This document shows positions 3-39,307 of a stretch of DNA of 64,000 nucleotides, one piece after another. The position numbers and the translations under genes are program-made. Position 1 is the first letter of the stretch, and each line of letters starts with the position of its first letter. Under the pieces are notes generated by a model. It searched no databases and had not been told where the DNA came from. It was given only the letters and a program-made list of their open reading frames with translations. The stretch comes from Spirochaetota bacterium. GTDB lineage: Bacteria; Spirochaetota; Brevinematia; DTOW01. The stretch lies in assembly GCA_025061835.1 (NCBI GenBank), contig JANXAC010000002.1, positions 37,185 to 101,184 on the forward strand, given 5' to 3'.

Positions 3-179
3 TGGGATAATGACGTTAAGGGTAAAGTTAGGTTTCTGAAAATCAAAGGTTATGCCAAAAACTACACTTCTGGAGACATATACGAAAAGTTGTCAAAAAT
101 GGTTCAAGAGATTGGGTTTCCTAAACCTCTCGCTATTACTGAAGTCTCAGTAGAAGAATTTGAATTATATGGAGGCTAA
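3..179 (+). CDS. C-terminal end of an upstream gene truncated by the window edge; product unknown
   Basis: Own translation: frame 3 is open from the first bases to TAA at 177-179 (...LAITEVSVEEFELYGG*). The stop overlaps the GGAGG ribosome-binding site of the next gene. Absent from the ORF track because no start lies in the window. Confidence 0.3.
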   Translation, partial: WDNDVKGKVRFLKIKGYAKNYTSGDIYEKLSKMVQEIGFPKPLAITEVSVEEFELYGG

Positions 180-21084: not shown

Positions 21085-21118
21085 TAGTGTAAAATAAGTT
21101 TAGTTGTAGGAGGTTTTT

Positions 21119-22309
21119 ATGGCTGAAGGTAAGTTCGAGAGAAAGAAGCCCCACATCAATGTAGGGACTATAGGTCACGTTGACCACGGTAAAACAACTT
21201 TGACTTCTGCTATTACTAAAGTTCTATCAAAAAAGGGCTACGCTAAAGAAAAGAATTATGAAGATATTGACAATGCTCCTGAAGAAAAAGCTAGAGGTAT
21301 AACTATTCAGATTCAGCACATAGAATACGAAAGTGATACAAGACACTACGCACACATAGACTGTCCAGGACACGCAGACTATGTTAAGAATATGGTTACG
21401 GGTGCAGCACAGATGGATGGAGCAATACTTGTTGTCGCTGCTAATGATGGTGTTATGCCTCAAACAAGAGAACATGTCTTGCTCGCCAGACAGGTAGGTG
21501 TTCCTTACATTGTAGTATTCCTAAACAAGATTGATATGGTCGATGACCCTGAAATCATTGATATAGTTGAAGAAGATGTAAGAGATCTCCTGAAGAAGTA
21601 CGGCTACCCTGGTGACAAAGTTCCTATCATAAGAGGTTCTGCTTACAAAGCCATGACAAACCCTGACCCAAACACAGACGGTAAGAGTATATTAGAGCTC
21701 CTTGATGCTCTTGACAAGTTTATCCCCGAACCCGTTAGAGAGATTGATAAACCATTCCTTATGCCTGTTGAAGATGTATTCTCCATCTCAGGTAGAGGAA
21801 CTGTAGTTACCGGTAGAGTTGAGAGAGGTAAGATCACTCCAGGTGAAGAAGTTGAGATAGTAGGACTTTCTTATGAGGTCAAGAAAACTGTCGTTACATC
21901 AATAGAGATGTTTAGAAAGGAACTTGACTCCGCTATAGCCGGAGACAACGCTGGATTGCTTCTAAGAGGTATTGGAAAGGATGAAGTTTGGAGAGGACAG
22001 GTTATCTGTAAGCCTGGGTCAGTTACACCTCATAAGAAATTCAAGGCAGAGATATATGTTCTGAAGAAAGAAGAAGGTGGAAGACATACTCCATTCTTTG
22101 CTGGTTATAGACCTCAGTTCTTCTTTAGAACCGCAGATGTCACTGGAACTGTTACGAAGATACCAGGAGAAATGGTAATGCCAGGAGATAATGTGAATGT
22201 TGAGGTTGAATTAATATACCCTGTTGCTATGGAAAAGGGACTTAGATTTGCTATAAGAGAAGGTGGTAAAACAGTCGGTGCAGGTGTTGTAACAGACATT
22301 ATTGAGTAG
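21119..22309 (+). CDS. tuf: translation elongation factor Tu
   Basis: [11 protein letters not shown]-loop, DCPGH, NKIDMV and [13 protein letters not shown] motifs; 396 aa; AGGAGG RBS. Confidence 0.97.
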
Positions 22310-22322
22310 TTTCGGTGGTTCT

Positions 22323-22631
22323 ATGGTTTCAAAAATAAGAGTAAAACTAAAGTCATACGACGCTGAAGTAATTGACAAAACTGCCAAAGACATATGTAAT
22401 GTAGTCAAGAATGTAGGGGCTAAAACTGTAGGCCCCATACCATTACCAACAAAAATAAGGAGATACACTGTCTTAAGATCTCCTCACATAGATAAAGACT
22501 CAAGAGAGCATTTTGAATATAGACTTCACAGAAGGCTAATAGACATACTTGAGCCATCTCAAGAAGTTATAGATGCTCTCTTAAGATTGGAAATACTACC
22601 TTCAGTTGATGTGGAGATAAAACAAGATTAG
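22323..22631 (+). CDS. rpsJ: 30S ribosomal protein S10
   Basis: [20 protein letters not shown]...[15 protein letters not shown] matches S10. ORF track start 22302 is a TTG inside the tuf 3' end; the first ATG is at 22323. Confidence 0.93.
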
Positions 22632-22671
22632 TTATAGATCAAGAATACCTAGATTTTATTTGGAGGAAGTT

Positions 22672-23325
22672 ATGGGAAAGTCTTTTACCGGAAAGGGGCT
22701 TATAGGCAAGAAGATAGGAATGACGCAAATATTCGTTGGTGAAAACGTTGTTCCAACTACAGTTATAGAAGTAGGTCCTTGCACCATATTACAAGTCAAG
22801 ACACCTGAAAAAGACGGATACAGTGCAATCAAACTCGGTTTTGGAGCTGTCAAGTCTAGGGTAAAAGATAAGAGTGATAAGACAAAGTATAAGATAATAC
22901 ATAAACCTGCTATAATAAAAGAGTTTAGAGTTGATGACCCTACAAAGTTTAAGGCTGGAGATACTCTAGATGTTTCTTATCTTGAAGGCATCAAGTATGT
23001 TGATGTAAGTGGATACTCAAAAGGTAGAGGCTTTCAAGGTGTTATGAAGAGATGGGGCTTTTCCGGAGCTCCTGACTCACACGGACAATCGGTGTTCCAC
23101 AGAAGACCTGGTTCAATAGGACAGCATACATTCCCCGCTAAAGTATGGAAAGGTAAGAAAATGCCCGGTAGGATGGGTGGTGAAAAGGTAACAGTCCAAA
23201 ATCTGGAAGTTATTCATATTGATAAAGAGAAAAACCTTATCCTCGTTAAAGGAGCAGTACCTGGCTACAACGGCAGTTATGTTTTTGTGAGAGAGGCTAT
23301 CAAGAAATCAAATCTGGTTGGTTAG
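22672..23325 (+). CDS. rplC: 50S ribosomal protein L3
   Basis: GLIGKKIGMTQIF N-terminus and L3 body. Track start 22660 is TTG overlapping GGAGG (22662-22666); ATG 22672 lies 5 nt downstream of that RBS. Confidence 0.93.
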   Translation: MGKSFTGKGLIGKKIGMTQIFVGENVVPTTVIEVGPCTILQVKTPEKDGYSAIKLGFGAVKSRVKDKSDKTKYKIIHKPAIIKEFRVDDPTKFKAGDTLDVSYLEGIKYVDVSGYSKGRGFQGVMKRWGFSGAPDSHGQSVFHRRPGSIGQHTFPAKVWKGKKMPGRMGGEKVTVQNLEVIHIDKEKNLILVKGAVPGYNGSYVFVREAIKKSNLVG

Positions 23326-29229: not shown

Positions 29230-29991
29230 ATGGAAAACTTGATAGGTATAGGGTATCTTAAATTCTTCAGTGAAGGAGATAATACTATGTATGATAAAGT
29301 TGACATAAATATCAAGAACGATAATGACTTTGTTGAATTAATTAACAAGTTCATAAAAGAAGGTAAATATTTCTACTTAAAGTTCTACGGTATATCACCA
29401 GAAATTGAAAGAAGGGTAAATCTAGCTATCACTAAGATTTTTGAGAATTACGAAAGGGGAGACTTATCTGACATTGTATATACTTGTGTTAAAGAACTAA
29501 TCCTCAACGCTAGCAAAGCTAACATAAAGAGAATAGTGTTTGAAGAACATAATGTTGATGTAAATGATGAAAAGAGCTTCTTGGTAGGTATGATGAAGTT
29601 CAAAGAAGAACTTTCCGAGATAAACCTACCTAAATATATTCCAAAACTAGCAAACAAGGATCTATACATAAGTGTAGCATTTTACCATTCCAAAGATGGT
29701 GTTAGGATTGAAGTTGTGAATAATGTAAGCATGAGTGAATTCGAAAACAAAAGGATAAGAGAGAAACTTAAGAAAGCGATGGGTTACGAAGATATATCAC
29801 AGTTTTACTTAGAACAAGGTGATGAACTTGAGGGAGCAGGATTAGGAATTGCCCTTATTGTAATGCTCCTTAAGGGAGTCGGTATTGACCCTTCACTTTT
29901 CAGAATATCCGGACCTAACAATAACTATGTCCTAGCCAGAATAGAAGTTCCTCTAACCGAAAATTATGTTAGTGTAAGAAAAAGAAATTAG
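29230..29991 (+). CDS. GHKL/HATPase_c-like protein (anti-sigma-factor-type kinase or histidine-kinase-like; tentative)
   Basis: N-box-like ELILNASKA, G1-like DGVRIEVVNN, G2-like EGAGLGIAL in the canonical order; GGAGG RBS 5 nt upstream of ATG. Confidence 0.42.
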   Translation: MENLIGIGYLKFFSEGDNTMYDKVDINIKNDNDFVELINKFIKEGKYFYLKFYGISPEIERRVNLAITKIFENYERGDLSDIVYTCVKELILNASKANIKRIVFEEHNVDVNDEKSFLVGMMKFKEELSEINLPKYIPKLANKDLYISVAFYHSKDGVRIEVVNNVSMSEFENKRIREKLKKAMGYEDISQFYLEQGDELEGAGLGIALIVMLLKGVGIDPSLFRISGPNNNYVLARIEVPLTENYVSVRKRN

Positions 29992-30066: not shown

Positions 30067-31281
30067 TTACTTATTCACAAGAAATCTACTCAACCAAAAA
30101 TCCGCTTCCTCTGGAATTAACCTTCTGGCTTTGAACAGTAGGTCTATTGCTTCCTTCTTCCTGCCAAGCGCATACTCGCTCCTTGCCAGATAAACCATAA
30201 CAAGTCCTTTAAGATAAGAATCCTCATCAAAATTCTCAAGCAACCCTCTCAATCTCAAACTACTTTCACTATAGTTTCTGACATTAAAGTAGTTCTTAAC
30301 TATATACTTTAGATTTCCTTCAAAATCACTATCACTGCTATACCCCAAAGTAGATTTGACACTAGACGAATCAAACTTTCCTGAAACAGGTATTCGGCCA
30401 CTTCCGTTAGTTATAAGAACGAGATTAGTTGTAAATGTCTTTACTTCATTGGTAAAAAAATTAGTTACATAATTAGTTATGAATACAGTATTTGTGGTAA
30501 CGTTCATGTTAGCATCAACTGACAAGGCTTTATCCATTGATGATCTTTGAACAATTAGATTGGTAGAAATTTTTGGAGAGGACATATCATCATACCTAGA
30601 TCTACTTACAACAACACTGTTATACTTCCTTGAAAAGTAGTAATTCGTAACACTCTTAAAAAATGGTATAACTATGTAAGAAAAATTAGTATCAGACGGA
30701 AGAATGTCAAACAATATCGTCTCATCAGGAGATAAAACTGATATTGGTTTCAAATTTTCTAGATTACCCTGAAAATTCTCATCAACTTTATACACGAAAT
30801 AACCATCACAACCATTAATCCTGCTCCATTTTATAACCACATTCCTAGAATCGTTTATGTAATCCAATTCAACTTTAGGTAATGGTGTATAAATAACAAA
30901 ACTGATAGAAACATTCTGCTCGGAAACAAACTCTAAAATATCCTTACCACCCTTATTCACAAAAACAATATAATAATTAGCTCCTATGTTAGGAGTTGGA
31001 TCTTTAACATATAGAAACTCCCCTCTTCTATCAAGTTCATCATACCTGTATGTTCCAACTTTAGTAATTAGGGAAATATTATTAGAAAACATAACAGAGT
31101 TTGATATGTAAATAGGGCTTCTATAGATGGAAAACGACACATTAGTATTCAAGGACTTCCAATAAACAAAAACATCTCCATCCTCCATACCATATGTTAT
31201 AAGCGAAACAACCTGTGCTATACAGATATTACCTAAAAAGAGAAATACAATAATTACCAAAAACCAAACAATCAACCTCAT
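30067..31281 (-). CDS. secreted/membrane-anchored hypothetical protein with C-terminal TPR-like helices
   Basis: N-terminal hydrophobic signal/anchor; beta-rich middle; C-terminal helical repeat region; 404 aa. Confidence 0.5.
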   Translation of the reverse strand: MRLIVWFLVIIVFLFLGNICIAQVVSLITYGMEDGDVFVYWKSLNTNVSFSIYRSPIYISNSVMFSNNISLITKVGTYRYDELDRRGEFLYVKDPTPNIGANYYIVFVNKGGKDILEFVSEQNVSISFVIYTPLPKVELDYINDSRNVVIKWSRINGCDGYFVYKVDENFQGNLENLKPISVLSPDETILFDILPSDTNFSYIVIPFFKSVTNYYFSRKYNSVVVSRSRYDDMSSPKISTNLIVQRSSMDKALSVDANMNVTTNTVFITNYVTNFFTNEVKTFTTNLVLITNGSGRIPVSGKFDSSSVKSTLGYSSDSDFEGNLKYIVKNYFNVRNYSESSLRLRGLLENFDEDSYLKGLVMVYLARSEYALGRKKEAIDLLFKARRLIPEEADFWLSRFLVNK

Positions 31282-31450: not shown

Positions 31451-34168
31451 TTAGACAACAATATTTACAAGTTTTTTAGGAACAACAATAATCTTTTTTG
31501 GTTGTGAGTTATTCAATGATCTCCTGATTACCTCATTACTCAACGCCATCTGTTTGATTTCCTCGTCAGTTATATCTATTGAAACTTGAACTTTTGCTTT
31601 TACCTTTCCATTTATTTGGAACACAACTTCAACTGTATCATAGGAAAGGAACCTTTGGTCATAAGAAGGCCATAAACTTTCACACAGCATTAATTCATTA
31701 CCTATCAAACTCCACAATTCTTCTGCTATGTGTGGTGTGAATACATACATAAGAGCAATAAGTTTCTCAATTCCTTCCCTAAACACACTCCTTTCAACTT
31801 CATCTTTAGGTTCAAATGAATAGAGTTCATTTGTGAGTTCCATAAGTGATGCTATAGCAGTATTAAAACTAAAGTCTCTCTCAATATCATCCCCTACCTT
31901 CTTGACAGTGATATTTATCTTGGTAAGTAAGTCTTTCGCTTTTTTGGAAAGGTTCTGGACTGAACTGTAATCAAAACTCTTTGACTCCTTGATTGTATCC
32001 AACTTCCCTACTACAAGTCTCCAAACTCTATTCAAGAACCTATACGCTCCTTCAATACCTTCATCGCTCCAGTCCAAATCCTTCTCTGGAGGAGACGCAA
32101 AAAGAATAAAAAGTCTAACAGCGTCAGCACCATACTTTCTGACCATATCATCAGGATCAACAGTGTTATGCTTTGACTTTGACATCTTTGCAGATTCACC
32201 TATCTCTTCCTCCAACTTTGAAATAACATCATTCCAAGCACCATCACTATTCCCAATAACCCCAAACAAAAGAGATATGTTACTAGCCAGTGTCAAGTGA
32301 TATTCTTCCAGAACATCCTTAATCTTTCTATCATCCTCAACAACATTAACCTTCAAATTCTGATACCGTTCTGAAAGCTTTTTGGTAAGAGTTCTAATTG
32401 TATCGTTCTCATCAAGACCTAAAGCATTGAGTAGCATATTAATACCGACCCATCGTTTATTCACCATACCCTGCGTCAATAGATTTACAAACGGTTCATC
32501 GCTATCAACCAGTCCTATATCTTTCATAAACTTGTGGAAGAATCGTGCGTAGAGTAAGTGTAGTATTGCATGTTCTACTCCTCCTATGTATTGATCAACA
32601 TCAAGCCAATACCTACTCTCTTCTTTTGAAAACGGTTCTTTATCATTCTTTGGAGATGTATATCTTGCGTAATACCAACTTGAGTCAAAGAAAGTATCCA
32701 TCGTGTCAGTCTCTCTTCTCGCCATTGAACCACAACTGGGACACTTTACCTTGAGAAATTCTTCATTAGTCTCAAGCGGATTACCTCTACCCGTAAATTC
32801 AACACCTTTAGGTAAAACAACAGGTAGATCCTCGTAAGGAACTGGAACATAACCACACTTCTCACACTTCACAAACGGTATAGGTGTTCCCCAATATCTC
32901 TGTCTTGATATAAGCCAATCTTTTATCTTGTAGTTATACCTCCTCTGACCTAGCTCTTTCTCTTCAATGTATTCAATTATCTTCATAATTGCCTCGCTAC
33001 TTTTCATTCCCGAGAAGGAAGAAGAATTAACCATTATACCTTCTTCGGTATATGCAGAAGTCATTTTGCTTGGATCAAGACTTTTATCAGAAGGTTGTAT
33101 AACAACTTTTATGGGTAGTCCATATTTCTTAGCAAACTTGAAGTCTCTCTCATCGTGAGCAGGCACACACATTATCGCACCAGTTCCGTATTCCATAAGC
33201 ACAAAGTTAGCAACCCACAACGGAACTTTTTCACCAGTAAGCGGGTTTTCTACATACCTCCCAGTGAATACCCCTTCCTTCTCATACTCCTCTGAAGTTC
33301 TCAACTTGTAATCCTCCTTTCTCATTCTTTTGACTTCACTTTCAATACTAGGATTTTCCTTCATAAACTCATCAACTAGAGGATGTTCTGGTGATATTGC
33401 CATAAAAGTAACACCGAAAATAGTATCAGGTCTAGTTGTGAATATTGGAAAGTCTCTACCATCATCAAGTTTGAAATTCACAACAACACCGAAGCTCTTA
33501 CCTATCCAGTTTTTCTGCATCAATATAACCTTCTCGGGCCATTTACCGAGTTTTGAGTGATCCTCTAGTAATCTATCCGCATATTCTGTTATCTTTATGA
33601 ACCATTGTTCAATATTTCTTATCTCAACCTCTGTCCCACACCTCCAACACTTACCATCTATAACCTGCTCATTTGCCAAAACGGTATTACAATCAGGACA
33701 CCAGTTCACTGCAGAAGACTTTCTATAAACTAAACCTCTTTCATACATCTTTAGGAATAACCATTGGTTCCACTTGTAATACTCTGGATCACAGGTTGTA
33801 ATTTCCCTACTCCAGTCATAAGCAAAACCAAGTCTCTTGAGTTGAGACTTCATAGTTGCAATATTATCATATGTCCAAACCGCTGGATGGACACCTTTAC
33901 TAATAGCCGCGTTCTCCGCTGGTAGTCCAAACGCATCCCATCCCATAGGATGTAAAACATTAAATCCTTTCATCTTCTTATACCTAGCAACAACATCACC
34001 TATCGTATAGTTTCTCACATGCCCCATGTGTATTCTACCCGAAGGGTATGGAAACATCACAAGAACATAATATTTCTTTTTACTACTATCAACTTCAGAC
34101 CTAAAAACTCCTTTTCTCTCCCATATCTCCTGCCATTTCTTCTCAATCTCTTCAAAGTTGTAGTGCAT
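31451..34168 (-). CDS. leuS: leucyl-tRNA synthetase
   Basis: Class I HMGH ([15 protein letters not shown]) and KMSKS ([13 protein letters not shown]) motifs, LeuS-type editing domain insert; 905 aa. Confidence 0.95.
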
Positions 34169-34346
34169 ATTAGAACCTCTATTCCATATTTTAAAAAACT
34201 ATAACTACCGAATTCATCTAGGATTACATAAACCTTTAAGATATTCAATTCAAGGTTCTTCAAGATTGTTCAAGCAAGTTTTATAAATTCAATCAAAAAT
34301 TTTTGAAATCTTCTCTCTGTAAAAGTATAATATATCAGAAGAAGCT

Positions 34347-35108
34347 ATGTCTCTTAAGGAAATGATCTCAATATCTACAAAAGTAATCCCTTCAGTAGAT
34401 GAAATAATTTCAGAATCTCTCAAGAGACACAATTTTACTCCCCAAGATGTAGAAGAAAACTTTTCCGATTCAGTAGAAACTTTAGAAAGAATAGCAAATG
34501 GTATATATAATGAATATGAAAACAAATGTTTGGAAACTTTTGTACAAAAATGGATAAGACAAAGAAGACTAGACGACATAGAGAAAATAAAGATCCTCAA
34601 CTGTGAAAACTACGTAGAAAAACTTAAAAACGAGTTTCTTGAATTCGCAAAAGCAATCCAAAATCTTGAAAAACATCTTGGCAATATGAGAAAAGCAAGA
34701 GGAGGAAAGAGCTTTGAAAAGATCATTCTAATACTTCTTAGAATGATAGAGATTACTTGTGAGATACCGAAAGGAGAATATAGAAATAGGCTAAAGAGAA
34801 TAGATATAGTAATACCATCATCTCAGCAAGCCATAAATTATCCAGACAGGTCTGTATTTCTAACCTGTAAAAGGACATTGAGAGAAAGATGGAAACAAGA
34901 AGTCCCTCAAGTAGGACCTAACTAGACAGTGTACCTGATAACTATTGACGATGATATAAGTCAAGGAAAAGCCGAAGAAATACGTTATATGGGTTTAATA
35001 GCTTTCACAAAGGATAGTGTAGCACGCAATATAAACAAGCCTTGGATAAGAGGACTATCAAATTTACCCAAAGACATAAAACAAAAGATAGGAAGAGCAA
35101 AGAGGTAG
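34347..35108 (+). pseudogene. presumed restriction-endonuclease partner of the downstream methyltransferase, interrupted by one in-frame TAG (34923-34925)
   Basis: Own translation: the frame of the 192-codon ORF continues open for 60 more codons (TVYLITIDDD...KQKIGRAKR) to TAG 35106-35108, 3 nt before the methyltransferase ATG. Nuclease identity is inferred from position only (RIDIVIP/FLTCK could be a degenerate PD-(D/E)xK core). Confidence 0.4.
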
Positions 35109-35111
35109 AAT

Positions 35112-36374
35112 ATGATACAGAAAGAACTGTTTGACAAAGGTCTATTTAATACTGACTTCCTAGCATCAGATACCTCTCACAAGAGACAAAGAGAGCCTTA
35201 TTTTGACTTTAAGGGAATTAAAGCTAGTGAAGGTATTTACGGCATTCACCCATATCCAGCAATGTTCCATTACAGAGTCGTTAGAGAGTTAATAAAGAAT
35301 TTTTCAAATGATAATAGCATTGTTTTTGATCCGTTCCTAGGCTCGGGAGTCAGTGCTGTTGAGAGTATAATAAGCAGGAGAAATTTCATAGGATACGACA
35401 TAAACCCTCTAGGTGTTTTAATATCAAAAGTTAGGACAACACCTATACCAACAAGAGAACTTCTAGAGACTCTCAACTTCATAGTTCAAAATTTTGATAA
35501 TCAAGCAGCTGAAAAACCCTCCTTCACAAATATTGATTACTGGTTTAATGAGAGTGTGGCTAAATCTCTATCAAAAATAAAGAAAACAATCCTGCAGATA
35601 CAGGATAGAGTAAGAGACTTTTTCTTAGTAGCATTTTCAGAAACGGTAAGAAAGGTATCACTAACAGACCATAATGAATATAAGCTTTTGAAAGACAGTT
35701 CAAAGATAGTAGAAGATGTTAATGTTATAAAAACATTTAACGAGATCTCCCAAAGAAACATAAAACTACTAACAGATTTTTACAGAACCAATGAAGTTTC
35801 AGGCAAAATAATCTCAATTCAAGTTAGGAACATATTAGATGGATTGGACTTTGACTACCCTGCTGACTTAATTATAACCTCTCCTCCTTATGGTGACTCT
35901 AGAACTACTGTTGCCTATGGTCAGTTTTCAAGACTATCTCTACAATGGATAGGAATAAACGAAAATATTGACAAAAAATCACTAGGAGGCAAGATTAGTA
36001 AAATTCATACTAACTTACCTTCAGAGACTTTATATACTACCCTCAAGGAAATTCTAAAAGTTGATGAAAGGAGAGCTGTAGAAATATTTTCGTTCTACGA
36101 AGATCTTTACAACGCTATAAAGGTAATAGCAAAATCGGTAAAGAGAGGTGGTTATGTATGCTTTGTTGTCGGAAACAGAAGAGTTAGAAAAGTAGATCTT
36201 CCAACGGATATAATCTCTGCTGAATTCTTTATTAATGAAGGACTAGAACATATTAAAACAATAGTTAGAAAAATCCATAACAAGAGAATACCAATTCAAA
36301 ATTCTCCCTCCAACATAAAAGGAAATACTGACACAACGATGCGATACGAATATATTCTGATACTCCGTAAGTAA
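35112..36374 (+). CDS. amino (N4-cytosine or N6-adenine) DNA methyltransferase
   Basis: SAM-binding FxGxG-type motif (VFDPFLGSGVSAV) followed about 175 aa later by catalytic SPPY (IITSPPYGD), an alpha-class-like arrangement; AAAGAGG RBS. Confidence 0.8.
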   Translation: MIQKELFDKGLFNTDFLASDTSHKRQREPYFDFKGIKASEGIYGIHPYPAMFHYRVVRELIKNFSNDNSIVFDPFLGSGVSAVESIISRRNFIGYDINPLGVLISKVRTTPIPTRELLETLNFIVQNFDNQAAEKPSFTNIDYWFNESVAKSLSKIKKTILQIQDRVRDFFLVAFSETVRKVSLTDHNEYKLLKDSSKIVEDVNVIKTFNEISQRNIKLLTDFYRTNEVSGKIISIQVRNILDGLDFDYPADLIITSPPYGDSRTTVAYGQFSRLSLQWIGINENIDKKSLGGKISKIHTNLPSETLYTTLKEILKVDERRAVEIFSFYEDLYNAIKVIAKSVKRGGYVCFVVGNRRVRKVDLPTDIISAEFFINEGLEHIKTIVRKIHNKRIPIQNSPSNIKGNTDTTMRYEYILILRK

Positions 36375-36500: not shown

Positions 36501-38969
36501 CTAGATAAACAGATTAATGTTTGAGTTTGAAGCGTTTGCGATGTAAGTAGCAACACCTCCTATTTTTATACCATCAATGAGTTCTTCTCTTCTTATTCCC
36601 ATAACATCCATAGACATCTGACAGGCAACAATTTCAACGCCACTCCTCATCGCATTCTGTATCAGTTCTTCAAGAGTTGAGATATTCTTCTTCTTCATAA
36701 GCCATCTTATCATCTTAGGTCCTATGCCAAACATATTCATTTTTGACAATTTTAGGTTTTCAGTCCCTTTTGGTAGCATCATACCAAACATCTTTGATAT
36801 GAGATCTTTCTTGACTTTTACCTTAGAGTTTTTCTTAAGAGCATTCAGACCCCAGAATGTGAAAAACATACTAACTTTCTTTCCCGCAGATAAGGCACCG
36901 TTTGCTATAACAAATGACGCTATCAGTTTATCAAGGTCATCATCAAATACTATTATGGTAGCAGAATTGTTAGTTGAGATAACATTTGAAGTAGAGAGTG
37001 TTTCTTGCGAAGACTTTTCTATCACAGCCTCAATTATTCCCTTATCTTGCTTTAGAGATAGTAATTTATTACCTGTAACATCGGTCCAAGCCTTGACATC
37101 ATTAGCAAAACCCGGGTCAGTTGCCTTTACAACGACTTTTGCACCTCTTTGGAGAGAATCCATACTCTGTTTCAACTTGAGTATAGGACCTGGACACTGT
37201 AATCCACAAGCATCAACTTCAACAACTACTCCTTCCTTTGTCTCCTTAAGTGGTTCTTGAGTCACAAGGTCAGATAGGTCAACTCTATATCCAGTATATA
37301 TATCCTCATTACCTTGCTTCTGGGTTACTACTTCATAAGTCTTGTATCCACCCGTAAGGTTATAAACCTCCTCAAATCCATTCTGATAAAGTATCCTACA
37401 AGCAACATAAGCTCTTAAGCCAACTCCACAATACACAATTATCTTTTTATCTCTTGGCAACTTATCAAGGTTATTTCTCAGTTCATCAACAGGTATATTA
37501 ACAGAACCTTCAATGTGTCCAAGATCATACTCATCTTTGGTTCTAACATCAAGCACAAAAATACTAGATTTATCACTGTTCAAAAACTCATCCCAAGTTA
37601 TTATCTTCTGCTTCCCACTCAAAACATTCTCTGCCACATAACCTGCTATGTTAACAGGATCTTTCGCCGAAGAGTATGGTGGAGCATAAGCATGATCTAG
37701 GTCAATCAAATCATAAACAGTTAATCCTGCTTGTATAGCTGTTGATAGAACATCTATCCTTTTATCAACTCCATCATATCCAACAGCCTGTGCCCCAAGT
37801 ATCCTACCATCTTCAGGAGAAAATATGAGCTTGAGAGACATAGGAAGAGCACCAGGATAATACCCTGCGTGAGATGAAGGGTGTATTATAACATACTTAT
37901 ACGGTATCCCTTCTCTCTTGAGTAGTTTTTCAGTTGCACCTGTAACAGCAACAGTTATATCAAAAACCTTCGCTATAGCAGTTCCTATAGACCCCTTATA
38001 CCTTCTAACATTACCAAAGACTATGTTATCGGCAACAATCCTACCTTGTAAGTTAGCAGGCCACGCCAAAGGAATACCTATCTTCTTCTTTATGACAGGA
38101 TGATAAACTTCAATAGCATCTCCAATAGCATATATATCAGGGTCCGAAGTTTGTAAGTAATCATTCACAACTATATGTCCTCTCTCTCCTATCTCAAGTC
38201 CCGCTTCCTTTGCTAGTTTACTCTCTGGTCGCACACCAATAGAAAGTATCACCATATCAACTGATAGTTTTCTACCACTACTCAAGTTAACTACTATCCT
38301 ACCATCAAGGTCCTTATCAAAACTTGCTACACTATCCTTAAGATAGAACTCAACATTCTTCGTTTTTAAGTGCTGATGAACCAAAGCAGCCATCTCAAAG
38401 TCAATAACCCCCATAACTTGTTCCATCGCTTCAACAATCGTAACCAGAATGCCTCTATGCGCTAGATTTTCCGCCATCTCAAGCCCAATAAATCCTGCCC
38501 CTACTATCACCGCTCTCCTCGGTTTGTTTGAATCAATAAATTCCTTTATCCTATCAGTATCTCTTATGTCTCTAAGAGTGAAGATATTTGGTAAATCTAT
38601 ACCCGGTATCGGTGGTTTAACTGGTGTTGCTCCCGGTGAAAGCACAAGTTTATCATACTTCTCCGTATATTCATTACCAGTTCTCAAATCCCTAACTAAA
38701 ACTTCTTTTTTCTCTCTATCAATCTTCAAAACTTCACTCCTAACCCTAACATCTACATTAAACCTCCTGATAAAGCCTTCAACTGTTTGAACCAAAAGAT
38801 TACTCCTCTCTTTTATCACACCACCTATGTAGTAAGGTAACCCACAGTTAGCATAAGATATATACTCACCTCTCTCAAAAACCACTATCTCTGCCCTCTC
38901 ATCCAGTCTTCTCAACCTAGCAGCAGTTGACATACCTCCAGCAACACCACCTACTATCACGCACTTCAT
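36501..38969 (-). CDS. four-domain sulfur oxidoreductase: CoA-disulfide reductase/NADH oxidase - rhodanese - TusA - DsrE-like
   Basis: FAD/NAD Rossmann VIVGGVAGG with redox Cys in SYANCGLPY; rhodanese active loop YCGVGLRA; TusA CPxP motif (CGLQCPGPIL); C-terminal DsrE-like region (EIVACQMSMD). Track start 38981 overlaps GGAGG; true ATG likely 38969 (MKCVIVGG). Confidence 0.8.
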   Translation of the reverse strand: MKCVIVGGVAGGMSTAARLRRLDERAEIVVFERGEYISYANCGLPYYIGGVIKERSNLLVQTVEGFIRRFNVDVRVRSEVLKIDREKKEVLVRDLRTGNEYTEKYDKLVLSPGATPVKPPIPGIDLPNIFTLRDIRDTDRIKEFIDSNKPRRAVIVGAGFIGLEMAENLAHRGILVTIVEAMEQVMGVIDFEMAALVHQHLKTKNVEFYLKDSVASFDKDLDGRIVVNLSSGRKLSVDMVILSIGVRPESKLAKEAGLEIGERGHIVVNDYLQTSDPDIYAIGDAIEVYHPVIKKKIGIPLAWPANLQGRIVADNIVFGNVRRYKGSIGTAIAKVFDITVAVTGATEKLLKREGIPYKYVIIHPSSHAGYYPGALPMSLKLIFSPEDGRILGAQAVGYDGVDKRIDVLSTAIQAGLTVYDLIDLDHAYAPPYSSAKDPVNIAGYVAENVLSGKQKIITWDEFLNSDKSSIFVLDVRTKDEYDLGHIEGSVNIPVDELRNNLDKLPRDKKIIVYCGVGLRAYVACRILYQNGFEEVYNLTGGYKTYEVVTQKQGNEDIYTGYRVDLSDLVTQEPLKETKEGVVVEVDACGLQCPGPILKLKQSMDSLQRGAKVVVKATDPGFANDVKAWTDVTGNKLLSLKQDKGIIEAVIEKSSQETLSTSNVISTNNSATIIVFDDDLDKLIASFVIANGALSAGKKVSMFFTFWGLNALKKNSKVKVKKDLISKMFGMMLPKGTENLKLSKMNMFGIGPKMIRWLMKKKNISTLEELIQNAMRSGVEIVACQMSMDVMGIRREELIDGIKIGGVATYIANASNSNINLFI

Positions 38970-39307
38970 AAAAGCCTCCATAAACTACAAACAGTATATA
39001 GTATAATAAATATATTGAGATAATTATATCAAAGTTTGAAAAATCTACAATACTTGTAGTATTTTACATAACCAAAATAGATTAGATTTTATAAAGACAG
39101 CCTAAATCGTTAGAAAAAACACTAAACTTTATCACAACTCAAAAGAAACACACCTATGTAGAGAGGAAATTACTCACACTAGGATTACAGCAAAACCTTA
39201 AGGGTATATTACCTTTTAAATACTACTTTACCAAACTTTGAAGGTGAATAGGATATTAGGTTTTATCTTTAGTCCTCCCATCCAGATTGTTTATATTATC
39301 TACACAA

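Follow-up and report, generated by a model that had tools for sequence, protein, structure and literature searches.

When a single in-frame TAG interrupts the nuclease frame of a restriction-modification (R-M) locus and the methyltransferase next to it is left whole, the stop may be real or an artefact, and a real stop may have killed the enzyme, may throttle it, or may be read as an amino acid. We addressed this question for one such locus in a 64,000-nt stretch of Spirochaetota DNA (hereafter the window, whose coordinates are used throughout). The original prediction, made from the sequence alone, had read the locus as an amber-interrupted nuclease beside an intact amino-methyltransferase in a decaying R-M system, and this main reading was borne out wherever it could be tested. 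With a probability of roughly 0.87, we regard the locus as an ordinary, long-resident R-M system in decay, in which the change of Gln codon 193 to TAG killed the nuclease and left the methylase as an orphan.

Layout of the locus and its two enzymes

Positions 34347-35108 form one 254-codon frame with an internal TAG. From the ATG at 34347, 192 sense codons lead to the TAG at 34923-34925, beyond which another 60 codons can be read in this frame before a second TAG at 35106-35108. The methyltransferase ORF starts at ATG 35112, 3 nt past this final TAG, and runs to a TAA at 36372-36374. The coordinates given in the original prediction were all confirmed. The features of the region are as follows.

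31451-34168, minus strand: leuS, neighbour of the R-M locus
34303..34331, plus strand: promoter-like site, TTGAAA-17 nt-TATAAT, 11/12 consensus matches, 15 nt 5' of the nuclease ATG
34347..34925, plus strand: restriction endonuclease pseudogene, 5' fragment of 192 codons with the premature TAG; Pfam EcoRII-C 27.3 bits, PADLOC REase_II
34923..34925, plus strand: premature amber codon (codon 193); CAA (Gln) in the closest homologue, Gln being the family majority
34926..35108, plus strand: endonuclease gene, 3' remnant of 60 codons with the original TAG stop, from alignment to full-length homologues
35112..36374, plus strand: intact DNA amino-methyltransferase gene, 420 aa; Pfam N6_N4_Mtase, PADLOC MTase_II
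36501-38981, minus strand: Pyr_redox_2/rhodanese/TusA/DsrE fusion (oxidoreductase), the other neighbour

The promoter-like site lies in the divergent intergenic region between leuS and the R-M genes and, judged from its match to the consensus, is likely to be the operon promoter; promoter-like sites in this region are no more frequent than in the region's own shuffles. No mobility genes were found near the R-M locus, and the predicted setting between leuS and a sulfur oxidoreductase gene, free of mobility genes, is borne out by the gene annotation. NCBI names the 192-codon ORF “type II restriction endonuclease” (MCS7298648.1, MDW8112026.1), and gene callers list a 59-codon ORF in the tail as a separate gene. 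The two ORFs (34347-34925 and 34929-35108) are better annotated as a single restriction endonuclease pseudogene.

The interrupted frame encodes a type II restriction endonuclease of the PspGI/Ecl18kI/EcoRII-C type. The Pfam profile EcoRII-C (PF09019, cut-off 25) scores 37.8 bits on the joined frame vs 27.3 on the 192-aa part, matching at profile positions 7-138 with the tail and 7-105 without it. Because both score and match length grow when the tail is added, and because full-length homologues match it at their C-termini, residue for residue, the 60-codon continuation is not a chance open frame; L197, T199, D201, S205, K208, E211, I212, R235 and P241, all within the tail, are invariant in the homologue alignment. 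In total 211 nuclease homologues were found, nearly all of about 250 aa and uninterrupted, and the best among GTDB species representatives is 51% identical. Searched against the PDB, the family profile found PspGI (3bm3, E = 3e-17), Ecl18kI (2fqz, E = 6e-15) and EcoRII (E = 3e-8), and NCBIfam held no informative model for either the nuclease or the methyltransferase. The fold was examined on P0001, an intact homologue 81% identical to the window's product, rather than on the interrupted frame itself. Its AlphaFold (AF2) model (pLDDT 95.3) has the mixed central beta-sheet and the long N-terminal helical region of the CCGG-family fold, and Foldseek matched it to Ecl18kI (TM 0.81), PspGI (0.69) and EcoRII-C (0.62), with no other significant fold. 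Pfam, the PDB profile search and Foldseek thus agree with the original assignment of the upstream ORF as the nuclease of an R-M locus, and the structural comparison with PD-(D/E)xK enzymes that had been suggested with it is answered through the homologue.

Using the PspGI residues listed in PMC2577326, E124 (GGKSFE), D153 (RIDIVIP) and K175 (TCKR) align with the active-site residues E105, D138 and K160; in the family D153 and K175 are invariant and E124 nearly so. The fourth acidic residue of this fold family, 13 positions after the Lys (E173 in PspGI, E195 in Ecl18kI), is absent: position 188 is Gln here and varies among Q/S/A/E across the subfamily. E185, three residues upstream and near-invariant, may be its stand-in. 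Q188 is a difference from the family that does not overturn membership of the CCGG group. R179-E180-R181, invariant in 69 sequences, aligns with R164-E165-R166 of PspGI, whose R-(D/E)-R motif reads the CC:GG halves (PMC2577326), and the recognition residue N113 is also present in the 5' fragment.

The methyltransferase carries FDPFLGSGVSAV at residues 72-83 and SPPY at 257-260; motif I (DPFLGSG) occupies 73-79, and motif IV (SPPY) follows ~180 residues later. D73, P74, F75, G77-S78-G79 and the whole of SPPY are invariant in 18 homologues, with L/M/V/C at position 76. Pfam N6_N4_Mtase (PF01555) scores 64.2 bits, and the PADLOC model MTase_II PDLC03322 matches over its full length (E = 1e-102), a match to be read at the family level and not as one to M.PspGI or M.MvaI directly, the source enzymes of the model not being stated. 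More than 7000 homologues exist, and the alignment with homologues runs over the full length, including the conserved C-terminal YEYI(V/L)(I/V)L(R/K)K. These results support the predicted intact amino-DNA methyltransferase. The order of its motifs is I ... IV (alpha-type) and not IV ... I as in the beta class. Residues 24-99 align with positions 137-213 of the Pfam profile for the beta class, in its C-terminal part, an alignment with MboIIA shows the same permutation, and in the AF2 model (pLDDT 82.9) the strand of motif I (70-73) precedes that at 251-256, after which SPPY lies. In the PDB, the methyltransferase sequence matched beta-class enzymes in their motif I region only, and the Foldseek matches were all generic class-I methyltransferases, among them NNMT, PNMT and Trm11; neither search pointed to a solved DNA methyltransferase with this topology. 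From SPPY (PMC2532716), and from some homologues that JGI names cytosine-N4-specific through automated naming, the enzyme is probably of the N4-cytosine type.

The premature TAG and what it could mean

The closest homologue of the nuclease, 81% identical and with the same leuS/oxidoreductase neighbours (L001/L002), carries CAA (Gln) where the window has TAG, and each of the 17 aligned homologues shows a sense codon in this column (Q, W or R, with Gln in the majority). The L001/L002 gene stops on a TAG at the same position as the final TAG of the window frame, and the ends of other homologues fall no more than a few residues away. Comparison with related genomes therefore yielded the uninterrupted frame, and the proposal of a single in-frame amber rather than a frameshift, with the same frame open to a second TAG, gains from a tail that is conserved among homologues. 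A functional type II R-M system has an uninterrupted nuclease frame, which is broken here at codon 193. All mapped catalytic and CC:GG-recognition residues lie upstream of the TAG and are retained in the truncated product. Beyond codon 193, the P0001 model places strands 194-198, 218-221 and 234-236, three of the five in the central sheet, and helices 206-214, 223-229 and 237-248. Since three of the five strands of the PD-(D/E)XK sheet and the C-terminal helices are missing, the 192-aa product should not fold into an active nuclease. The comparison with L001 (dS about 0.6) gives a dN/dS of 0.17 in the 5' part, 0.13 in the 60-codon tail and 0.14 in the methylase; from the value of the tail, the lesion is recent.

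A sister genome, GCA_026414895.1 (L082), is 99.9% identical to the window and has the same TAG. It differs at 12 sites in 13.2 kb, of which 4 fall within the 2-kb R-M locus; as the locus makes up 15% of the sequence, this excess is suggestive and not significant (binomial P about 0.1). A 1-nt deletion at 34599 shifts the nuclease frame and leaves an 89-aa ORF (P0128), and C>A at 36347 (TAC to TAA) truncates the methylase at Y412*, removing its last strand, which is conserved.

That the TAG is a sequencing or assembly error, the real genome having CAG or CAA at 34923 and an intact nuclease, was among the alternatives raised originally. The window belongs to a metagenome-assembled genome, whose consensus can carry errors, and the low dN/dS of the tail would fit an intact gene equally well. 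However, the TAG site is neither a homopolymer nor a repeat, and the same TAG is found in a contig built by an independent assembler (Logan assembly of SRR15826899, L083), which is 100% identical to the window over 4445 nt, in the separate sister MAG, which differs elsewhere by strain-level SNPs, and in the two NCBI records, which hold the same 192-aa product. An exact look-up of that product on contigs gave no match; the Logan contig came from a look-up of the methylase instead. This support consists of assembled sequences that may come from the same site; within what assemblies can show, we reject an artefact of a single assembly, and an error of this kind is very unlikely. We consider the decoding of TAG as an amino acid, whether by Gln reassignment or as pyrrolysine, hardly credible. 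Homologues do have Gln at the position, and some phages and a few organisms are known to read TAG as Gln, but TAG closes tuf (21110-22309) and rplC (22621-23325) at normal lengths, both ends being confirmed by Pfam, together with 13 further ORFs of 150 codons or more, and stop usage among all ORFs of this size in the window is TAA 25, TAG 16 and TGA 10. The nuclease frame itself terminates on TAG where the L001/L002 gene does, and ARAGORN found only a tRNA-Ser in the window, with no suppressor tRNA or tRNA(CUA). Stop counts, the tuf and rplC ends and ARAGORN together lead us to reject reassignment or suppression as far as the window allows, and the earlier argument from tuf and rplC is strengthened by the further long ORFs.

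Leaky or regulated expression would take the form of amber readthrough, or of 192-aa and 59-aa pieces, the latter restarted at GTG 34929, acting as a weak split enzyme. The frame is otherwise undamaged, its tail is in frame with the dN/dS of 0.13, the GTG lies two codons past the TAG where L001 has GTA, and gene callers score the 59-codon ORF as a gene. A recent lesion, however, would give a low dN/dS regardless, the nearest SD-like AGGA lies 12 nt upstream of the GTG at poor spacing, and the window holds no suppressor tRNA. The stop does not appear to be a conserved design, as none of the 17 aligned homologues has one in this column and the more than 200 matches are nearly all uninterrupted at ~250 aa; programmed readthrough would be recognised by conservation of the stop in relatives, and only near-identical strains share it. 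The extra upstream frameshift in the 99.9%-identical sister speaks against selection for the frame, so that the readthrough regulation raised originally is disfavoured, and we give leaky expression in either form little credence. Slighter still is the chance that the TAG attenuates and does not kill the nuclease, by rare readthrough or by reinitiation at GTG 34929 and assembly of the two pieces; if so, the cell would hold a trace of a CCWGG/CCNGG nuclease, harmless yet restrictive, and the locus would be a naturally split or throttled restriction enzyme. A recently acquired cassette, defective on arrival or disabled on entry, is likewise improbable. R-M systems are often horizontally mobile, and this nuclease family is scattered over many phyla, archaea included; but the same gene pair sits intact in the same leuS/oxidoreductase slot of a lineage at dS about 0.6 (L001/L002), mobility genes do not flank it, and its G+C of 33.5% is within 1 SD of the window mean (35.0 +/- 1.5% for 2-kb windows), by which a foreign composition is rejected. 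Of the predicted “decaying or recently acquired” state, the former stands, with the additional lesions of the sister genome, and the latter is not supported, given the shared slot and the typical G+C.

Probable decay of the locus, and broken nuclease genes in its family

In the preferred reading, the decay of a long-resident system ran as follows. The starting state was a chromosomal type IIP R-M operon of long residence, with a PspGI/Ecl18kI/EcoRII-C nuclease and an SPPY methyltransferase. A point mutation in the Spirochaetota population changed Gln codon 193 into TAG, ending translation after 192 residues; the truncated nuclease should be unable to fold as an active enzyme, and the methyltransferase would keep working as an orphan. 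With the nuclease dead, the locus is drifting, the sister genome having added its 1-nt nuclease deletion and the TAC-to-TAA change in the methylase. The methyltransferase is now an orphan without a working nuclease partner, and since its gene is intact and its past divergence was under purifying selection, we infer that it should still methylate the former target. In methylome readings of this hot-spring Spirochaetota lineage it is best taken for an orphan enzyme, probably of the m4C type.

Other loci of the family show this asymmetry too. Of 41 family loci, 39 have a methylase homologue next to that of the nuclease. About 10 of the 41 species-representative loci, or about a quarter, have nuclease frames broken by stops or frameshifts, and 6 of these keep an intact methylase. 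In none of the 41 is the methylase gene broken while the nuclease frame is full-length; L019 comes nearest, its methylase being frameshifted and the adjoining nuclease match missing the first ~36 residues. The nuclease is lost first, because a cell that loses the methylase while the nuclease is active dies. A point-mutated nuclease beside a surviving methylase is a common and well-understood route of R-M decay, and decayed type II systems leaving orphan methyltransferases are known for many Helicobacter pylori systems (Lin et al., 2001 PNAS, PMC30209). The locus described here, with a point-mutated nuclease and an intact methyltransferase, does not differ from them in principle; it goes beyond them in that near-identical genomes reveal the order of events, a shared nonsense mutation followed by a private frameshift and methylase truncation. 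On a small scale it illustrates the expected order cleanly, with the nuclease lost first by a lesion present in all strains and a second stage, more nuclease damage and the truncated methylase, in one of them. Beyond annotation, it matters little.

Known relatives and the probable target

By sequence, the best PDB match is the PspGI system of Pyrococcus sp. GI-H (R.PspGI and M.PspGI), with which the window's nuclease shares the aligned E/D/K active site and the R-E-R recognition motif. PspGI and M.PspGI recognise CCWGG, and M.PspGI has SPPY and a size of about 50 kDa (PMC2532716); the window's methyltransferase, likened to it by description, is also about 50 kDa with SPPY. A thermal environment, judged from the hosts of relatives, is a further likeness, as is the depletion of CCWGG and not of CCSGG in the window. 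Unlike PspGI, the window's nuclease gene is a pseudogene, identity in the structural alignment is only about 22%, the distance from the pocket helix to the GGKxFE motif is ~70 residues vs ~41 (in the helical N-terminal region), the catalytic E173 aligns with Q188, and the pocket residue F64 has no clear equivalent. Ecl18kI/SsoII (CCNGG; 2fqz) gives the best structural match and the longest sequence alignment (query 46-246). Near-invariant W69 aligns with W61 of Ecl18kI, the residue that stacks on the flipped base (PMC2577355). The segment -QEVP- after the RER motif is also shared; Ecl18kI is, however, 305 aa long and its catalytic E195 is unmatched. Ecl18kI and SsoII are partnered with C5-cytosine methyltransferases, unlike the SPPY amino-methyltransferase of this locus, and the depletion in the window favours CCWGG over CCSGG.

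By analogy with the PspGI system, the target is most likely CCWGG, with the inner cytosine methylated at N4. It may instead be CCNGG, given the alignment of W69 with Ecl18kI W61. In the window CCWGG occurs 31 times against 53.8 expected (observed/expected 0.58) and is modestly depleted, and CCSGG occurs 15 times against 9-13 expected (1.1-1.7) and is not; among 32 palindromic 5-mers tested, 5 show a stronger depletion than CCWGG. Pooled over the family loci the ratio is 0.68-0.72 vs 0.92-1.03 in controls, a weak contrast that is gone under an order-2 model. Word statistics thus lend weak support to CCWGG over CCSGG. The locus further draws attention to a large group of thermophile enzymes, an uncharacterised PspGI/Ecl18kI-like subfamily of ~250 aa whose SPPY methylase partners are conserved and which may interest enzyme hunters seeking thermostable CCWGG or CCNGG enzymes. 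A lesser novelty may be that this widespread hot-spring subfamily has its fourth catalytic acid at K+10 (E185) and not at K+13.

Genes of the restriction-modification locus

The restriction-modification (R-M) locus at window positions 34347-36374 consists of a nuclease frame with an internal TAG and a methylase carrying SPPY, and the sequence matches the coordinates and layout of the original prediction.

Features of the locus (window positions)
upstream of the nuclease, minus strand: leuS, neighbour gene
34303-34331: strong promoter-like site, TTGAAA-17-TATAAT, 5′ of the nuclease ATG
34347-34925, plus strand: 5′ part of the nuclease ORF, ATG at 34347, 192 codons, TAG at 34923-34925
to TAG 35106-35108, plus strand: continuation of the nuclease frame, 60 codons open past the internal TAG in the same frame
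35112-36374, plus strand: methylase ORF, ATG at 35112, 3 bases past TAG 35106-35108, 420 codons
36501-38981, minus strand: Pyr_redox_2/rhodanese/TusA/DsrE fusion, downstream of the methylase

By sequence comparison this is a type II R-M operon whose families are known. The 192-aa part alone exceeds the Pfam EcoRII-C threshold (27.3 bits); for the 253-aa joined product the score rises to 37.8 bits and the end of the match moves from profile position 105 to 138. Searching 5.8 billion proteins with the joined frame gave 211 homologues, nearly all uninterrupted, about 250 aa long and covering 91-100% of it, and their alignment has nine invariant columns within the 60-residue tail. Against the PDB the family profile matches PspGI (3bm3, E = 3e-17), Ecl18kI (2fqz, 6e-15) and EcoRII (3e-8), and the best PADLOC nuclease model has 272 positions, the length of PspGI. 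The upstream ORF, first called a nuclease from its position, is thus identified as one, and the tail belongs to it. The AlphaFold model of P0001, the closest intact homologue (81% identical; pLDDT 95.3), predicts an Ecl18kI-like fold (TM 0.81; PspGI 0.69, EcoRII-C 0.62), and a structure search with it superposed nothing beyond these three.

By the roles assigned in the PspGI structure paper (PMC2577326), active-site residues E105, D138 and K160 correspond to window E124, D153 and K175, and recognition residues Q94 and R164-E165-R166 to N113 and R179-E180-R181, while the fourth active-site acid, E173, corresponds to Q188, which is no acid. In PspGI and Ecl18kI this acid (E173 and E195) lies at Lys +13, where the ~250-aa subfamily has Gln or a variable residue (alignments A1 and A4); the subfamily instead has a nearly invariant E185 at Lys +10, three residues before Q188, and one homologue (P0015) is reversed, with A185 and E188. 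E185 may therefore substitute for the fourth acid, and in the subfamily the metal-binding Glu may be placed differently. Codons 185-188 occupy window 34899-34910. All mapped active-site and recognition residues are encoded 5′ of the TAG. Past it the P0001 model has three helices and three of the sheet's five strands (194-198, 218-221 and 234-236), therefore the 192-aa product lacks most of the fold core, and we infer from the model that it would be inactive.

The downstream gene is, as predicted, an intact SPPY amino-methyltransferase of 420 codons, with matches to PF01555 (64.2 bits) and, at full length, to the PADLOC MTase_II model PDLC03322 (E = 1e-102). It carries FDPFLGSGVSAV, with SPPY ~180 residues further on. 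It is the C-terminal part of the beta-class PF01555 profile that aligns with residues 24-99, so that in the methylase motif I precedes motif IV, and the structural model likewise has motif I ahead of SPPY, with helical insertions at 114-226 (~110 residues) and 263-342. By its SPPY it resembles the published description of M.PspGI, a ~50 kDa protein that contains SPPY, is similar to M.MvaI and protects CCWGG but not CCSGG (PMC2532716). It has more than 7000 homologues, some automatically named “cytosine-N4-specific” by JGI. Foldseek with the methylase model returned generic class-I methyltransferases only and no solved DNA methyltransferase of such topology; the family appears to be without an experimental structure. 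A methylase homologue adjoins the nuclease homologue in 39 of 41 species-representative loci, and the two therefore form a conserved cognate pair.

Origin and age of the internal TAG

P0001 is encoded on two Logan contigs, L001 and L002. In L001, leuS, the nuclease, the methylase (3 nt on) and the oxidoreductase are arranged as in the window, the nuclease frame is uninterrupted and the codon aligned with the TAG is CAA. Gln is also the majority residue at this column of the homologue alignment, and the internal TAG is a mutated Gln codon. Exact protein look-up matched the window proteins to Spirochaetota MAG records for LeuS (MCS7298647.1 / MDW8112025.1), the 192-aa ORF (MCS7298648.1 / MDW8112026.1, annotated “type II restriction endonuclease”) and the methylase (MCS7298650.1 / MDW8112028.1).

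Judged from assembled sequences, the TAG is not an artefact of a single assembly: L083, an independent Logan assembly from SRR15826899, shows no difference from the window along its 4445 nt, the TAG included; this TAG also occurs in the separate MAG GCA_026414895.1 (L082; 99.9% identical, 12 differences in 13.2 kb). An assembly error, originally raised as an alternative, is thus very improbable. Reassignment or suppression of TAG was rejected, and we give a changed code very little credence, since in the window 15 further ORFs of 150 codons or more stop at TAG (tuf and rplC among them, as had been noted), the nuclease frame itself ends in TAG and the tRNA gene search of the window found tRNA-Ser only. 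This final TAG has the same position in L001 and L002, and other nuclease homologues stop within a few residues of it. Expression of the nuclease by readthrough or as a split enzyme is likewise considered highly unlikely.

Compared with L001, dN/dS is 0.17 for the nuclease 5′ part (dS 0.61), 0.13 for its tail (0.54), 0.14 for the methylase (0.63), 0.05 for leuS (0.84) and 0.06 for the oxidoreductase (0.64). The whole nuclease frame was thus under purifying selection for most of the divergence from L001, which makes the stop recent. The original prediction had left open a decaying or a recently acquired system; decay stands, but recent acquisition has very little probability, as the window and L001 lineages carry the pair at the same position, its G+C (33.5%) differs by no more than 1 SD from the 2-kb window mean (35.0 ± 1.5%) and gene annotation bears out a position between leuS and the sulfur oxidoreductase gene with no flanking mobility genes in the window. 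The pair is an old chromosomal resident. The nuclease gene is most likely a recent pseudogene created by Gln-to-amber mutation, leaving an intact orphan methyltransferase, probably N4-cytosine. This is an ordinary finding, its chief value being correct annotation of the locus.

In the “sulfur oxidoreductase” (longest ORF 826 aa, annotated 822 aa) four parts are fused: a CoA-disulfide-reductase-like Pyr_redox_2 with dimerisation domain, rhodanese, TusA and DsrE/DrsE_2. Two conserved leuS neighbours, at 29230-29991 (plus strand, 253 aa) and 30067-31281 (minus strand, 404 aa), had no match in a Pfam search; both occur in L001 and L082 as well. The N-terminus of the 404-aa protein is hydrophobic and signal-like.

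Decay in the sister genome and across the family

The preferred reading of an inactivated nuclease beside an intact methylase is supported by homology, the CAA in L001 and extra lesions in L082, where four of the 12 differences fall in the 2-kb R-M locus (L082:5237-7236, JAOAIC010000053.1, equivalent to window 34347-36374). A 1-nt deletion at window 34599 frameshifts the nuclease, giving the annotated 89-aa ORF P0128; 34614 is G>A; a further G>A, at 35140, gives the methylase substitution G10D; and through C>A at 36347 a TAC codon becomes TAA, removing the last nine methylase residues, YEYILILRK. Family members conserve this segment, in which E413 and Y414 hardly vary, and it forms the final sheet strand, 412-419, of the methylase model. 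The TAG is common to all strains compared and the other lesions are private to L082, therefore the nuclease was lost first. A Gln codon became TAG, probably leaving the methylase without a working partner, and the nuclease frameshift and methylase truncation followed in the L082 lineage; in at least this lineage both genes are now eroding, and methylation may also be lost.

The nuclease frame is broken by in-frame stops or frameshifts in about 10 of the 41 family loci (L009, L017, L020, L026, L036, L038, L040, L042, L043 and the N-terminally truncated L023), some of which may be MAG errors. The adjacent methylase is intact in six of these; L017 and L036 have damage in both genes. None of the 41 loci has a full-length nuclease frame beside a broken methylase, the nearest case being L019 (methylase frameshifted, nuclease match without its first ~36 residues). 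Such nuclease-first asymmetry is expected because methylase loss beside a live nuclease is lethal; Helicobacter pylori reportedly provides an example. The nuclease family is spread over many phyla, archaea included, in hot-spring and subsurface lineages such as Kryptonia, Calescibacterium, Aquificales, Thermodesulfobacteriaceae, Fervidibacter, Bathyarchaeota and Methanoperedens.

Target sequence

The nuclease family reads a CC:GG core with the central pair flipped. CCWGG occurs 31 times in the window against 53.8 expected (Poisson P = 5e-4), although, among 32 palindromic 5-mers examined, five fall further below expectation; pooled over the 41 family loci its observed/expected ratio is 0.68-0.72, with a similar value for pooled control loci under an order-2 model. 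CCSGG occurs 15 times in the window (9-13 expected; pooled ratio 0.92-1.03). The near-invariant W69 aligns with Ecl18kI W61, a pocket residue of a CCNGG enzyme. We slightly favor CCWGG as the target, and regard CCNGG as a tentative second candidate.

Other words in the window are more depleted than CCWGG: GATC (113 observed, ~250 expected), GGCC (12 against 33-50), and the palindromes CTWAG (0.38), CTSAG (0.46), GTWAC (0.43), GTSAC (0.42) and GAWTC (0.42). The depletion of unrelated palindromes suggests that other R-M systems in the genome exert, or once exerted, pressure on these words. GGSCC words are strongly depleted in the 41 family loci, with 63 observed against 365-487 expected.
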